Part shown: positions 2,497-4,059 of the stretch, one piece after another
Numbering within the stretch: position 1 is the stretch's first letter
Layout: every line of letters begins with the position of its first letter
Sequence record: PZ445488.1
Length of the DNA stretch: 64,000 nt
DNA from: a phage
Direction: 5' to 3' (one strand)
The notes under the pieces: generated by a model
The model's database searches: none
Seen by the model: only the letters and a program-made list of their open reading frames with translations
What the model was told of the DNA's origin: nothing
Made by a program: the position numbers and the translations under genes

Positions 2497-3067
2497 AAAA
2501 GTTTCGGATTTGTTCCCAATTCAGAGAACGAAGATTATTACGAGAGTACTGAATTACTTCAATACCAGCTTGTTTTAGAATATCTGCCCAATTTTCAGGA
2601 GATCGGTCGTATAATTCTGCGTATACGACCTTTTTAATACCTGACTGCGTAATAGCTTTAGTACAATCAGGACATGGAGAAAGCGTCGTATATAACGTAG
2701 CACCTTCAATAGAATTACCTTTACGAGCGGCAAACAAAATTGCATTCAATTCTGCATGGATTTCATTATTAGCAGACCATGCACTATGAGCAGCTCGATG
2801 TTCTTTGGCTAAAACAAAATTATCTACCCGTCCAAATGCTGTAGTGCCTTCTTTATGTCCAGCAACGATGACTGGGATTGGTTTATTCTTCAACCAACCA
2901 TTTTCAGATGCATGTTCGCAACAGTTAACGCCACCTGCAGGTGAACCGTTATATCCAGTAGAGATAATGCGTCCATCTTTTTCAATGACGGCACCAACTT
3001 TCCATGAACAACATTTTGATTCTTGAGAAATCAGATATGCAATCTGAAGGTATGTGCTAGCTTTCAT
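2486..3067 (-). CDS. cd: dCMP deaminase
   Basis: 193 aa; zinc-dependent cytidine/dCMP deaminase motifs (HAE...PCxxC) and T4 Cd-like sequence. Confidence 0.9.
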   Translation of the reverse strand: MKASTYLQIAYLISQESKCCSWKVGAVIEKDGRIISTGYNGSPAGGVNCCEHASENGWLKNKPIPVIVAGHKEGTTAFGRVDNFVLAKEHRAAHSAWSANNEIHAELNAILFAARKGNSIEGATLYTTLSPCPDCTKAITQSGIKKVVYAELYDRSPENWADILKQAGIEVIQYSRNNLRSLNWEQIRNFCGE

Positions 3068-4059
3068 TATTGAACCTTATTAATATAAGTTAACAGCTCT
3101 TTAGTTTGTTCCCAACTGATGCACGCATCGGTAACGGAAACGCCATAGGACATATTATCAGAAATTTTTTGATTTCCTTCATGTAGGAACGATTCTATCA
3201 TAATTCCTTTGACCAAATCATTAGCTGCTAAATTTTTACCAATACCAATTTGATTGCTATAATGCCCATCAGCGTTTGCATGGCTACAGTCAACCATTAC
3301 ATAATGATTCAGACCTACTGCCCTTGCTTTGTTAGAAGCTTCTTGAATATCAGAAGAATGATAGTTCGGGCCGTTGGTCCCGCCACGCAATACGATATGC
3401 GTATTCTGATTACCTTCAGCTTCAACAATGCCTACAGTACCATCGACGTCCATACCCATATACCGATGAGGCCAGGCGGCACTATACATCGCGTCTGTAG
3501 CTACTTTAATAGAACCATTGGTTGCGTTCTTAAAGCCTACGCACATCGGTAGACCTGAAGCAATTTCACGATGTGTCTGACTTTCAGTCGTACGGGCGCC
3601 AATAGCAACCCATGAGAAAATACCAGAAAGATACTTAATCGTGAATGGGTCTAATACTTCAGTTGCTAATGGAAGTCCCATACGTAGAAGTTTACGACAC
3701 AATGTTCGTGCAACTATAAGACCGTGGTTCATATCAAAACTTCCGTCAAGATATGGATCATTTACAAGACCTTTCCAACCTACGGTAGTTCGAGGCTTTT
3801 CAAAATAAACGCGCATCACTAACAGAACATTAGGAAGACGAGTTTGAAGTTCAGCCAGACGTTTGCCGTATTCAACAGCAGCAATAGGGTCATGAATTGA
3901 ACAAGGACCTACAACAATAAGTTTGCGTGGGTCTTCACCGTTCATAATCGAATTAACTTGTTCGCGATGAGAAGCCACTTGTGATGCGTAAGCTTCCGAC
4001 AAAGGAATAATCTCAGCCAGTTCTTTTGGAGAAATAAGTTTTCCGACGACAGGTAACAT
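3067..4059 (-). CDS. 3-deoxy-D-arabino-heptulosonate-7-phosphate (DAHP) synthase, AroG/AroF/AroH class I type
   Basis: 330 aa; [54 protein letters not shown] and VTDAC motifs align with E. coli AroG catalytic residues. Confidence 0.85.
   Translation of the reverse strand: [330 protein letters not shown]

Follow-up and report, generated by a model that had tools for sequence, protein, structure and literature searches.

On the evidence of its sequence, an open reading frame of phage CEV1 is a complete type I-alpha DAHP synthase (DAHPS), the enzyme that converts PEP and erythrose-4-P (E4P) to DAHP. We propose, with a probability of roughly one half, that this enzyme supplies prephenate for an anaerobic (O2-independent) hydroxylation of cytosine in DNA modification. 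The proposal gives a concrete, testable reason for a strictly lytic phage to encode the enzyme that guards entry to the shikimate pathway. It also ties three unassigned genes, those of DAHPS, chorismate mutase and a U32 "peptidase," to arabinosyl-5-hydroxycytosine synthesis, a recently solved pathway whose only known hydroxylase is O2 dependent, while these phages inhabit the anoxic gut. The window, by which we mean the whole stretch of 64,000 nucleotides that was analyzed (PZ445488.1), comes from CEV1, a T4-like coliphage of the genus Mosigvirus.

The DAHP synthase gene and its surroundings

The DAHPS gene lies between cd and pseT, in a part of the genome that belongs to the T4-like core. The features of this region are as follows.

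3067..4059, minus strand: DAHP synthase (3-deoxy-7-phosphoheptulonate synthase), type I-alpha, phage clade; 330 aa, ATG start
4065..4069, minus strand: Shine-Dalgarno AAGGA, 5 nt 5' of the DAHPS ATG; read from sequence
3065..3069, minus strand: TAATG, 1-nt overlap of the DAHPS stop and the cd start; read from sequence
2486..3067, minus strand: cd, dCMP deaminase, directly 3' of DAHPS in one transcription unit; Pfam dCMP_cyt_deam_1, E=1.6e-26
4180..4416, minus strand: cd.2-like gene (DUF7320), the neighbor upstream of DAHPS; abuts cd directly in RB69
4171..4182, minus strand: imperfect 12-nt direct repeat, upstream copy, TAATGAGAGCTA; lies at the stop codon of cd.2
3058..3069, minus strand: downstream copy of this repeat, TAATGAAAGCTA; lies where DAHPS stops and cd starts
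5439..5463, minus (coding) strand: putative MotA-box-like (T4 middle-promoter-like) site, inside pseT, ~1.4 kb upstream

The TAATG overlap makes translational coupling from DAHPS to cd likely. MotA-box-like sites number 13 in the window against 3.6 expected, and scans for sigma-70 promoters and terminators gave results at chance level.

Catalytic core of the phage enzyme

A preliminary description of this DNA had presented the 330-aa product as a full-length, probably competent, AroG-type DAHPS with intact motifs. All six motifs that it quoted, VTDAC included, are found in the translation. The protein matched Pfam DAHP_synth_1 (PF00793) with E=5e-75 and 252 bits (cut-off, 25.5), and it scored 427.7 bits against NCBIfam TIGR00034 aroFGH (cut-off, 173.2) and 455 bits against NF009395 (cut-off, 343). 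Its top PDB match was E. coli AroF (6agm; E=5e-105, residues 8 to 327). In alignments, the metal ligands are present as C53, H260, E289 and D311 (AroG Cys61, His268, Glu302 and Asp326), and the PEP and E4P ligands as R83, K88, R90, T91, G154-A155-R156, K177 and R225. The latter correspond in AroG numbering to R92, K97, R99, T100, G163-A164-R165, K186 and R234 and take in the KPRT motif. The catalytic residues, the metal ligands among them, are all retained in the aligned orthologs of six phage genera. With its metal, PEP and E4P ligands intact, the enzyme is probably competent, as had been claimed.

Assignment to one of the E. coli isozymes was a different matter. Identity is 51% to AroF, 47% to AroG, with which the catalytic motifs are identical, and 44% to AroH. 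Two equivalogs were rejected on score: the Phe-sensitive AroG (NF006723; 363 bits, below the cut-off of 568), whose Phe-site residues are changed or absent in the phage enzyme, and the Trp-sensitive AroH (NF009396; 386 bits, below the cut-off of 463). AroF is the closest E. coli paralog and falls in the same neighbor-joining (NJ) super-clade, but a Tyr-sensitive isozyme of the AroF type was rejected as well, since the Tyr site is not intact. The earlier label was thus right about DAHPS and wrong about AroG, the protein belonging to an AroF-containing clade. AroF (6agm) and the phage enzyme have in common the fold family and the metal, PEP and E4P ligands, whereas AroF is linked to tyrA and the phage gene is probably coupled to dCMP deaminase in a lytic phage. 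We regard the phage enzyme as probably AroF-like in its catalytic core and not in its regulation.

DAHPS has the same fold as KDO8PS and falls in the same Pfam family, and the phage makes arabinose-5-P, so that an enzyme of altered specificity might be imagined, one that joins PEP to another sugar phosphate (e.g., arabinose-5-P, as KDO8PS does) and yields a precursor for DNA or surface modification. We consider this exceedingly improbable. The catalytic motifs, including GARTTESQ, align as identical to those of AroG and AroF, and KDO8P synthase was rejected as a candidate because NCBIfam returned DAHPS models only and no KDO8PS and because the KPRT motif is that of a DAHPS. The sugar on the DNA is arabinofuranose derived from UDP-Araf (PMC13326640, PMC13390438), with ribulose-5-P as its proposed source (PMC13326640), and no 7- or 8-carbon acid has been reported (PMC13326640, PMC13390438). 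The tie to DNA modification that had been suggested earlier, by way of a sugar-phosphate precursor, therefore finds no support in that form; what is supported is a tie through prephenate.

Remodeling of the inhibitor site

The N-terminus is 8 to 11 residues shorter than those of AroG, AroF and AroH, with 10 residues before the AroG Pro19 column compared to 17 to 19 in the E. coli enzymes, in agreement with the ~9 residues given previously. The N-terminal arm, which the phage enzyme lacks, closes the inhibitor site of the neighboring subunit. All six orthologs carry the same inhibitor-site changes, namely AroG P150 to I, Q151 to K, D155 to G and S180 to P (I141, K142, G146 and P171 in phage numbering), and the Asp6/Asp7 segment is absent from all of them; alignment places P at the position of AroG M147. 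The Phe site of E. coli AroG is thus not preserved at M147, P150, Q151 or S180, nor is its Asp6/Asp7 pair. The resulting five-position signature, P-I-K-G-P, is unique to the phage enzyme in a comparison with 105 cellular representatives. The Tyr site of E. coli AroF is similarly affected: the equivalents of N8 and I11 are absent with the ~9 missing N-terminal residues, P151-Q152 is replaced by Ile-Lys, and S181 is replaced by Pro (AroF numbering from the alignment). The Ile-Lys and Pro swaps and the missing N-terminus make Tyr inhibition of the phage enzyme unlikely.

P150L and S180F are known feedback-resistant mutations of AroG, and Q151 and S180 contact the inhibitor (PMC9529685). Engineered feedback-resistant DAHPS alleles (AroG P150L, S180F and D146N, and AroF variants) share substituted positions with the phage enzyme (Ile, Lys and Pro at positions 150, 151 and 180) (PMC9529685), but the residues differ, D146 is kept in the phage enzyme, and the insensitivity of the latter is predicted. 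Because residues that bind the main chain of the inhibitor are replaced and the N-terminal arm is missing, escape from feedback inhibition by Phe, Tyr and Trp is likely, and we grade this prediction as fairly strong. The suggestion that the short N-terminus may alter feedback is probably correct, and the substitutions at AroG P150, Q151 and S180 strengthen it. The strict conservation of the substituted segment suggests that it performs some function and has not merely lost one; with no variation between genera, this remodeled "allosteric" segment may recognize a new effector instead of being simply dead.

Distribution and selection

A tblastn search of 50,697 phage records gave 213 records with a DAHPS match and none in Tequatrovirus, which bears out the earlier statement that T4 has no such gene. 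The DAHPS of Pseudomonas phage Y13 was set aside, as that record is UNVERIFIED, has a high GC content and overlapping ORFs, and is probably bacterial DNA. The gene is annotated in ~200 phage genomes (in GenBank as "phospho-2-dehydro-3-deoxyheptonate aldolase") and so is not itself new; both PMC8022965 and PMC11845039 mention it. The CEV1 protein is a full-length member of PHROG 5045 (E=3e-182), which is classed as an auxiliary metabolic gene, and is 98 to 100% identical to ~140 annotated Mosigvirus proteins. It is the same, already annotated but uncharacterized gene as PHROG 5045 of other T4-like phages, and the CEV1 copy has no difference at the sequence level. The earlier view of an unusual auxiliary metabolic gene is upheld as to its kind, but as an annotation it is less unusual than supposed (~200 genomes; PHROG 5045; PMC8022965, PMC11845039). 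Going by sequence features, the gene is a phage auxiliary metabolic gene, being a host-like enzyme in a virulent phage that is conserved and under purifying selection.

In each of six genera (Mosigvirus, Kanagawavirus, Marfavirus, Winklervirus, Kagamiyamavirus and Bragavirus), the ortholog is found at the same position, immediately 5' of cd. Together, the six form a single clade inside the AroF-containing group (200/200 NJ bootstraps), and the nearest cellular relatives are only ~50% identical. These results contradict a recent host-derived insertion, which had been named as a possible refutation together with absence from related phages; RB69 does lack the gene, but six genera have it.

Might the gene nevertheless be a dispensable passenger, or decaying, with no current function? 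RB69 is fully viable after a clean deletion, and the segment missing from it is exactly the stretch bounded by both 12-nt repeat copies. Inside Mosigvirus, dN/dS is 0.3 to 1.2, a figure with only 4 to 6 changes behind it. However, the ORF is intact in ~200 genomes and across six genera with its catalytic residues all kept, dN/dS across genera is 0.10 to 0.24 (purifying selection), DAHPS is among the best-conserved DNA segments of the region within Mosigvirus, and the gene has a good ribosome-binding site and is probably coupled to cd. A functionless gene is, on balance, very improbable.

The arabinosyl-5-hydroxycytosine cluster and its U32 protein

Three further genes in the window belong, or probably belong, to DNA arabinosylation.

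63084..63983, minus strand: first DNA arabinosyltransferase of the 5-hydroxycytosine pathway (RB69 gp46:47 homolog); 99% aa identity to HY126 GT1, role from PMC13326640
62534..63082, minus strand: thymidylate-kinase-like nucleotide kinase of the modification cluster (RB69 gp45 homolog); 98% aa identity to the HY126 protein, PHROG 761
41151..42251, minus strand: probable second DNA arabinosyltransferase (RB69 gp3 position); assigned by position only, between rIIA and the topoisomerase II large subunit (gp39)

The putative second arabinosyltransferase has no Pfam match; an arabinosyltransferase flanked by rIIA and gp39 has been described (PMC13390438, PMC13326640). In HY126, with which the window is collinear up to its end, the thymidylate synthase (TS)-homolog 5hodCMP synthase and the U32 gene come next, within 1 to 3 kb, and it is here that the window ends. 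This collinearity and the near-universal presence of U32 in Mosigvirus indicate that CEV1 probably has the gene just past the window end. The CEV1 fragment KM389388, which does not overlap the window, contains no U32 gene.

The HY126 U32 protein (RB69 gp50 homolog) matches Pfam PF01136 with 42 bits (cut-off, 22.4), and 152 records show at least 99% identity to it. Identity to the E. coli paralogs is only 16 to 21%, and a PDB sequence search with the phage protein gave no match. With respect to the canonical four-cysteine Fe-S motif of U32 proteins, it has cysteines aligned to UbiU C169 and C193 and a Gly in place of C176, with a further Cys close by; four additional cysteines cluster at the C-terminus. 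Outside Mosigvirus, the genes for U32 and 5hodCMP synthase flank that of a chorismate mutase (CM_2, E ~1e-10), with overlapping codons; the mutase gene adjoins U32 in all the U32-positive genera found. No chorismate mutase remnant was detected in Mosigvirus, either in the phage collection or in a relaxed local search. Work by Raya et al. in 2006 is said to have described efficient anaerobic infection by CEV1.

In the DNA of these phages, arabinosylated 5-hydroxycytosine takes the place of cytosine. The 5-hydroxy-dCMP synthase, a thymidylate-synthase homolog, requires FMN and O2, and RB69 makes the arabinosyl-5-hydroxycytosine modification aerobically (PMC13326640). Bacterial U32 enzymes (RlhA, TrhP, UbiU/V) catalyze O2-independent hydroxylation with prephenate as the oxygen donor, and the product of RlhA is 5-hydroxycytidine (PMC10990095, PMC5727448, PMC6599085).

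Co-occurrence of DAHP synthase with putative prephenate users

Among T4-like phages, DAHPS is confined to lineages with a U32-family protein in the arabinosyl-5-hydroxycytosine cluster, and no U32-negative T4-like genus was found to carry it. Numbers of tblastn records for DAHPS and U32 run in parallel by host genus (Klebsiella, 25 versus 26; Proteus, 7 versus 7; Enterobacter, 4 versus 4; Edwardsiella, 3 versus 3; Serratia, 6 versus 7). Each gene was probably gained once in T4-like phages, so this co-occurrence is phylogenetically nonindependent. The close relative RB69 has U32 but lacks both DAHPS and chorismate mutase, and three other U32-positive lineages (Tegunavirus, Mosugukvirus and Serratia phage 92A1) possess a chorismate mutase and no DAHPS; the latter three mark DAHPS as accessory. 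About 110 kb separates the DAHPS gene from the U32 cluster, and the probable coupling of DAHPS is to cd instead. Fifty-seven Acinetobacter phage records contain arabinose genes and neither U32 nor phage-type DAHPS. Acinetobacter is a strict aerobe.

Pairings outside the T4-like phages were also observed. On an uncultivated 80-kb contig of a PolIII-alpha phage (L108), a U32 gene of the same subfamily (54% identity) is followed directly by DAHPS, here a class I-beta core without the regulatory domain. Aeromonas phage HJ05 acquired its DAHPS (38% identity) separately and carries it three genes away from a CmoA homolog; CmoA is the carboxy-SAM synthase that consumes prephenate (PMC12783734). No close relatives of the HJ05 DAHPS were found, the 15 kb examined in HJ05 contain no CmoX (SPPC) motif, and most CmoA-bearing phages are without DAHPS. 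In 11 of 11 sampled contexts, the phage U32 subfamily lay within a nucleotide or replication module, beside homologs of the first DNA arabinosyltransferase in 3 of the 11; DAHPS adjoined U32 in 1 of 11 uncultivated U32 contexts. A DAHPS scan of IMG/VR gave 104 viral contigs, mostly giant-virus metagenome-assembled genomes, with no U32, chorismate mutase or CmoA within 10 kb except at two bacterial-looking aroF-tyrA loci.

These patterns bear on two other explanations. The first is a generic auxiliary metabolic role unconnected with DNA modification, in which the enzyme provides more Phe, Tyr and Trp for phage protein synthesis after host shut-off. DAHPS canonically serves this purpose, PMC11845039 offers this reading, and it accords with the class of PHROG 5045, the intact enzyme and the purifying selection. 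Yet hundreds of Tequatrovirus and other T4-like phages with the same hosts and the same protein needs do without the gene, which is distributed in step with the U32 module. Of the pathway, the phages encode just the entry enzyme, and feedback control would persist at the terminal branches. The sole other shikimate-related phage gene, that of chorismate mutase, is embedded in the DNA-modification cluster, and the independent DAHPS-U32 and DAHPS-CmoA pairings would be left unexplained. We therefore think this role unlikely.

The second explanation is a rewiring of carbon flux, in which irreversible consumption of E4P and PEP pulls the non-oxidative pentose-phosphate pathway toward pentose-5-P, for nucleotides and for arabinose-5-P and UDP-arabinose. 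T4-like DAHPS does occur only in DNA-arabinosylating phages, and ribulose-5-P is the arabinose source that has been proposed (PMC13326640). But the arabinose pathway is present without DAHPS in the 57 Acinetobacter records, Tegunavirus, Mosugukvirus, 92A1 and RB69, the distribution of DAHPS is closer to that of U32 than to that of AfhE or the isomerase, and the phage chorismate mutase is left without a purpose. Draining E4P would, moreover, waste carbon, since E4P is an intermediate and not a by-product of pentose formation. Such rewiring appears improbable.

A proposed supply of prephenate for DNA hydroxylation

In the reading that we prefer, prephenate supply, a deregulated DAHPS would push carbon into the shikimate pathway after host transcription has been shut off; escape from feedback inhibition would sustain this flux even in aromatic-replete cells. 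The purpose of the flux would be prephenate and not amino acids. From DAHPS, the host shikimate enzymes would lead to chorismate, and a chorismate mutase of the phage or the host would convert chorismate to prephenate, which would then serve U32-dependent C5 hydroxylation of cytosine where O2 is scarce, as in the gut. The U32 route would be the anaerobic twin of the O2- and FMN-dependent 5-hydroxy-dCMP synthase. With ~63,600 cytosines per genome and ~1 prephenate for each, demand would reach millions of molecules per burst. More tentatively, we suggest that such an "oxygen-donor supply line," in which a deregulated DAHPS and/or a chorismate mutase provides prephenate to a viral U32 Fe-S enzyme for C5 hydroxylation of cytosine without O2, may exist in many T4-like phages of facultative anaerobes and in some unrelated gut and environmental phages.

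This logic resembles that of bacterial U32 systems (UbiU/UbiV with UbiI/H/F, TrhP with TrhO, and RlhA), in which an O2/flavin enzyme and an O2-independent U32 enzyme serve one hydroxylation (PMC10990095, PMC6599085, PMC5727448). There, too, the aro pathway feeds U32, and the base chemistry of RlhA yields 5-hydroxycytosine, as proposed for the phage. In bacteria, however, prephenate comes from a housekeeping pathway, whereas the phage encodes supply enzymes (DAHPS and/or chorismate mutase); the putative substrate of the phage U32 protein is DNA or a precursor of it, and prephenate would be needed in stoichiometric amounts relative to the cytosines of the genome. The phage CmoA-CmoX-CmoY system, which makes 5-carboxymethylcytosine, is likewise a prephenate-consuming DNA hypermodification, but its chemistry is that of carboxy-SAM and not hydroxylation (PMC12783734). 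Its authors flagged the availability of prephenate for phage DNA modification as an open question (PMC12783734), on which our proposal bears.

If the proposal is true, prephenate-dependent hydroxylation extends beyond RNA and quinones to viral DNA, which would explain how these phages modify their DNA without oxygen and would give phage DAHPS genes a functional explanation. It would also represent the first virus to provision an organic oxygen donor and the first U32 enzyme to act on DNA precursors. For therapeutic Mosigvirus phages, it predicts an anaerobic, condition-dependent vulnerability to restriction systems. The phage enzyme, with its predicted feedback resistance, may in addition offer a natural DAHPS scaffold for metabolic engineering.

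An AroF-like DAHP synthase

The first 9 kb of the window are 100% identical to Escherichia phage CEV1, and many Mosigvirus genomes (RB69-like, Tevenvirinae) are ~96 to 97% identical to the window. The preliminary description had identified a DAHP synthase (DAHPS) of the AroG type, and the enzyme assignment was borne out: all six quoted motifs are present. The protein matches Pfam DAHP_synth_1 (E = 5e-75) and NCBIfam TIGR00034 (aroFGH; 428 bits against a cut-off of 173). CEV1 DAHPS and five orthologs (Edwardsiella PEi20, Klebsiella PWKp18, Proteus PM2, Serratia X20, and Escherichia EcS1) retain the metal ligands C61, H268, E302, and D326 and the PEP/E4P ligands R92, K97, R99, T100, G163-A164-R165, K186, and R234 (AroG numbering). 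Given that these ligands are all kept and that no NCBIfam KDO8P-synthase model matches, the CEV1 enzyme is almost certainly a type I-alpha DAHP synthase; the missing KDO8P-synthase match also leaves an altered substrate only the slimmest chance.

The AroG label fared less well. CEV1 DAHPS is closer to AroF (51% identity) than to AroG (47%) or AroH (44%), and falls below the AroG (363 against 568 bits) and AroH (386 against 463 bits) equivalog cut-offs. Among solved structures, E. coli AroF (6agm, E = 5e-105) is a better match than AroG (E = 4e-91). The catalytic core is best described as AroF-like.

As a gene, phage DAHPS is not novel, being already known and annotated: a DAHP synthetase domain was noted in passing in phiC120 (PMC8022965), and the gene of Kanagawavirus KLB31 was discussed as an amino-acid auxiliary metabolic gene (PMC11845039). 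A plain aromatic-amino-acid role of that kind seems to us rather unlikely. Our search across 8 million papers found no functional study of phage DAHPS.

The inhibitor site is remodelled

The shortened N terminus noted earlier is real: 8 to 10 residues precede the AroG Pro19 column in the six phage orthologs, compared to 17 to 19 in AroF/G/H, and all six therefore lack the segment with AroG Asp6/Asp7. In addition, AroG P150 is replaced by Ile, Q151 by Lys, D155 by Gly, and S180 by Pro, each in 6/6 orthologs. In AroG, P150L and S180F confer feedback resistance, and Q151/Q152 and S180/S181 bind the inhibitor main chain in AroG/AroF (PMC9529685). The five-position signature P-I-K-G-P occurred in 0/105 full-length cellular representatives, ~45 of which carry the canonical x-P-Q-D-S. 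Together these features suggest that phage DAHPS is probably insensitive to Phe, Tyr, and Trp.

One segment spans the AroG/AroF inhibitor-site helix and the catalytic loop that follows:

3586..3706, minus strand: invariant segment, residues 119-158

Its sequence, [11 protein letters not shown](S/T)[27 protein letters not shown], is invariant across six genera except for the one S/T position, while the rest of the protein is only 58 to 76% identical among them. We therefore infer that the inhibitor site has been remodelled and constrained, not decayed, and it could possibly bind something else, either a new ligand or a partner.

An old phage gene at a conserved locus

A tblastn search found DAHPS in 213 of 50,697 phage records: ~140 from Mosigvirus (98 to 100% identity), with Kanagawavirus at 76 to 77% identity to CEV1, Kagamiyamavirus, Marfavirus (Klebsiella), and Winklervirus at 66 to 68%, Bragavirus at 58 to 59%, and a handful of records that are dubious or come from elsewhere. 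The gene keeps one position in all T4-like genera examined, between a cd.2-like gene and cd (dCMP deaminase), with one or two small ORFs interposed in X20, EcS1, and Proteus PM2. The six phage proteins form one clade (200/200 bootstraps, neighbor joining) nested in the AroF-containing group. When 1.8 billion representatives were searched exhaustively with HMMER, no cellular protein was more than ~51 to 57% identical to CEV1 DAHPS. These results argue against a recent host-derived insertion, which the preliminary description had allowed for, and indicate an old, vertically kept phage gene. Cross-genus dN/dS is 0.10 to 0.24, with dS saturated; that DAHPS is a passenger is very improbable.

Absence from related phages, also raised earlier, applies to RB69, the type Mosigvirus, and the gene is kept in the ~140 Mosigvirus records and other genera. 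In RB69, cd.2 directly abuts cd (L103, the RB69 locus, 4743..5503, versus window 3058..4182), and the missing 1.1 kb is exactly the CEV1 segment between imperfect 12-nt direct repeats, TAATGA(G/A)AGCTA. The upstream repeat copy in CEV1 opens a vestigial cd-like start (ORF 4013..4180). The RB69 cd ORF (L103 4671..5252) stops early, at 169 aa versus 193 aa in CEV1, and a different frame encodes the missing C-terminal residues; the cause is a frameshift or else an error in that record dating from early Sanger sequencing.

Within Mosigvirus, DAHPS DNA is 97.5 to 100% identical, with dS of about 0.018 (window 2486..4059 against two comparison loci, L020 and L021). The adjacent cd, probably coupled to it in translation, has a dS of 0.22 to 0.31, and flanking DNA drops to 70 to 95% identity. 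The low DAHPS dS suggests a recent sweep or spread of one allele, or unusual DNA-level constraint.

The same-strand neighbors are gp31, gp31.1-like, cd, DAHPS, cd.2/cd.3-like small genes, pseT, alc, and rnlA. The ORF and its candidate expression signals are as follows:

3067..4059, minus strand: DAHPS ORF, 330 aa
5 nt upstream of the DAHPS ATG, minus strand: ribosome-binding site AAGGA
DAHPS stop codon overlapping the cd start, minus strand: TAATG
5439..5463, minus strand: MotA-box-like site inside pseT, 1.4 kb upstream of DAHPS, on its coding strand
2161..2185, minus strand: MotA-box-like site upstream of gene 31

Middle-promoter patterns of the MotA-box type (TGCTTNA, 11 to 13 nt, TANNNT) occur 13 times in the whole window against 3.6 expected, and a sigma-70 and terminator scan around DAHPS gave chance level only. 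Early or middle expression, jointly with cd, is plausible.

IMG/VR contigs with type I-alpha DAHPS (L022-L101) are mostly giant-virus MAGs, including some of pandoravirus size (1.8 to 2.5 Mb); eukaryotic giant viruses thus have DAHPS too.

A U32-family protein in the DNA modification cluster

The modified base of Mosigvirus DNA is 5-hydroxycytosine bearing one or two arabinoses (PMC13326640, PMC13390438). Its precursor 5-hydroxy-dCMP is made by a thymidylate-synthase (TS) homolog, RB69 gp48, an FMN-binding enzyme for which O2 is the oxygen source (PMC13326640, citing He et al.), and UDP-arabinofuranose derives from ribulose-5-P (PMC13326640). A rewiring of pentose or E4P flux by DAHPS is, in our judgment, improbable. 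In the Mosigvirus HY126 the cluster lies between gene 43 and uvsX and encodes A5P isomerase, AfhE, AfhF, a 386-aa protein, a 40-aa ORF, the TS homolog, ara-GT1, and a kinase. Its counterparts in the window, with a second transferase, are

62534..63082: modification-cluster kinase, 98% amino acid identity to HY126
63084..63983: ara-GT1, 99% amino acid identity to HY126
41151..42251: probable ara-GT2, between rIIA and gp39

The 386-aa protein, RB69 gp50, has been entered solely as a collagenase-like "sugar or heterocycle reductase" (PMC13326640). We found it to be a Peptidase_U32 member (U32; PF01136, 42 bits against a cut-off of 22.4). Three bacterial hydroxylase systems belong to this family, all of them independent of O2 and dependent on prephenate: RlhA makes 5-hydroxycytidine 2501 of 23S rRNA; TrhP makes ho5U in tRNA, parallel to the O2-dependent TrhO; and UbiU/UbiV act in ubiquinone synthesis, parallel to the O2/flavin enzymes UbiI/H/F. 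For UbiU/V, prephenate has been demonstrated to donate the oxygen, which requires the aro pathway even in LB (PMC5727448, PMC6599085, PMC10990095). Phage U32, however, shares only 16 to 21% identity with the E. coli paralogs and has a different residue at one cysteine of the canonical motif. The RB69-type DNA modification papers examined make no mention of DAHP, shikimate, chorismate, prephenate, or U32.

A chorismate mutase (CM_2), the enzyme whose product is prephenate, lies between U32 and the TS homolog in Kanagawavirus Entb_45 (E = 2e-10) and Winklervirus LC53 (E = 2e-11), overlapping its neighbors by 4 nt on each side. By tblastn it occupies this position in all non-Mosigvirus U32-bearing groups found: Winklervirus, Kagamiyamavirus, Kanagawavirus, Marfavirus, Tegunavirus, Mosugukvirus, Bragavirus, Providencia and Morganella phages, Serratia phage 92A1, and Shewanella phage Thanatos. 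Mosigvirus lacks it, with no remnant detected. At that position HY126 has the 40-aa ORF and ~160 nt of non-coding DNA (L007 2239..2521, just past the window end).

Among T4-like phages, DAHPS is nested within the U32-positive set

U32 was found by tblastn in 222 records, 82 to 100% identical throughout.

Phage records with U32 and with DAHPS, by host name
Escherichia: 137 and 125
Klebsiella: 26 and 25
Shigella: 14 and 12
Proteus: 7 and 7
Serratia: 7 and 6
Enterobacter: 4 and 4
Edwardsiella: 3 and 3
Enterobacteria: 3 and 3

Arabinose genes are far commoner (AfhE in 374 records, the isomerase in 276); 57 Acinetobacter phage records have them and neither U32 nor phage-type DAHPS. Acinetobacter is a strict aerobe, whereas the known hosts of U32-bearing phages are all facultative anaerobes. 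Among tblastn phage records, no U32-negative T4-like genus had DAHPS. For U32-positive phages DAHPS is an accessory gene: it is missing at the syntenic site from Tegunavirus phiR1-RT, Mosugukvirus PM2, and Serratia phage 92A1, and RB69 has neither DAHPS nor chorismate mutase. In T4-like genomes a long distance separates DAHPS from the U32 cluster. Each of the two genes was probably gained a single time among T4-likes, so that the nesting alone is weak statistical evidence.

Unrelated phages independently pair DAHPS with U32 or CmoA

A deeper search revealed a large uncultivated family of phage U32 proteins at 48 to 58% identity. In 11/11 sampled contigs U32 sits inside replication or nucleotide modules, alongside genes for PolIII-alpha, dCMP deaminase, thymidylate/deoxynucleoside kinases, UDG, NT5C, ThyX, and dUTPase. 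Three uncultivated PolIII-alpha phages have a homolog of the first Mosigvirus DNA arabinosyltransferase immediately upstream of U32 (E = 3e-9 to 7e-13):

L110 5028..8000: arabinosyltransferase homolog and U32, also with TAGT-like and GLF-like genes
L111 5022..7086: arabinosyltransferase homolog and U32
L112 2735..4820: arabinosyltransferase homolog and U32

No TS-homolog hydroxylase was found near U32 in these three, where U32 may be the sole base hydroxylase.

In one of the 11 contexts DAHPS is adjacent. On L108 (Logan SRR13394437_29825, an 80-kb contig of an uncultivated PolIII-alpha phage), 6545..10804 reads NTP-transferase-like gene, U32 (54% identity to Mosigvirus U32), class I-beta DAHPS core (248 aa, 59 nt after U32), and epimerase. 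The core matches TIGR01361 (E = 5e-64), with KDO8PS models reaching 62 bits at most. It matches NF006421 only at model positions 95-327 of 338 and therefore lacks the N-terminal regulatory domain; like CEV1 DAHPS, it is stripped of its regulatory part. Belonging to another class, it represents a separate acquisition, and the pairing is convergent with the T4-like case.

The unrelated Aeromonas phage HJ05 (79 kb) encodes a separately acquired DAHPS with 38% identity to that of CEV1. A CmoA homolog (TIGR00740, E = 7e-35; best PDB matches all CmoA) lies three genes upstream of it, and an asparagine-synthetase-like (CmoY-like) gene is nearby. In phage DNA carboxymethylation, carboxy-SAM is formed by CmoA at the expense of prephenate, whose availability has been listed as an open issue (PMC12783734). 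Each of the two pairings is a single case; CmoA occurs in 75 phage records, mostly without DAHPS. HJ05 DAHPS bears N- and C-terminal extensions; every gene of this region (L012 2645..11504) is annotated "hypothetical," and 7554..7904 encodes an Acb2/Tad1-hairpin protein (anti-CBASS/Thoeris sponge fold).

A proposed role in supplying prephenate

We propose, with a probability of roughly 0.4 to 0.5, that DAHPS supplies prephenate for DNA modification. Made together with cd after infection, it would condense PEP and E4P whatever the aromatic amino-acid level; host AroB through AroC would carry DAHP to chorismate, and the phage chorismate mutase, or host PheA/TyrA in Mosigvirus, would yield prephenate. 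With it, the U32 Fe-S enzyme would hydroxylate cytosine at C5 (as dCMP, dCTP, or DNA) under limiting O2, parallel to the O2/FMN enzyme.

A 169-kb genome at 37.6% GC has ~63,600 cytosines, and a burst of ~100 would need ~6 million prephenate molecules. By our estimate from textbook cell composition, this is of the order of a tenth of whole-cell Phe plus Tyr synthesis, and the demand would fall in cells whose own isozymes are repressed and feedback-inhibited. This scheme would account both for selection of a deregulated entry enzyme and for its dispensability in aerobic laboratory culture, as in RB69. Two things are added here to the known gene: evidence that its product is naturally deregulated, and a coherent, testable tie to a branch of phage DNA hypermodification that would draw on prephenate and need no O2.

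Other features of the window

The ORF at 9626..10105 resembles the ribonucleotide reductase small subunit, but the match is confined to the C-terminal third of that subunit, and the next ORF, 10265..11074, is an HNH endonuclease with an additional FlgM-like match. Across 9626..11074, nrdB thus looks to have been split by a homing-endonuclease or intron insertion.
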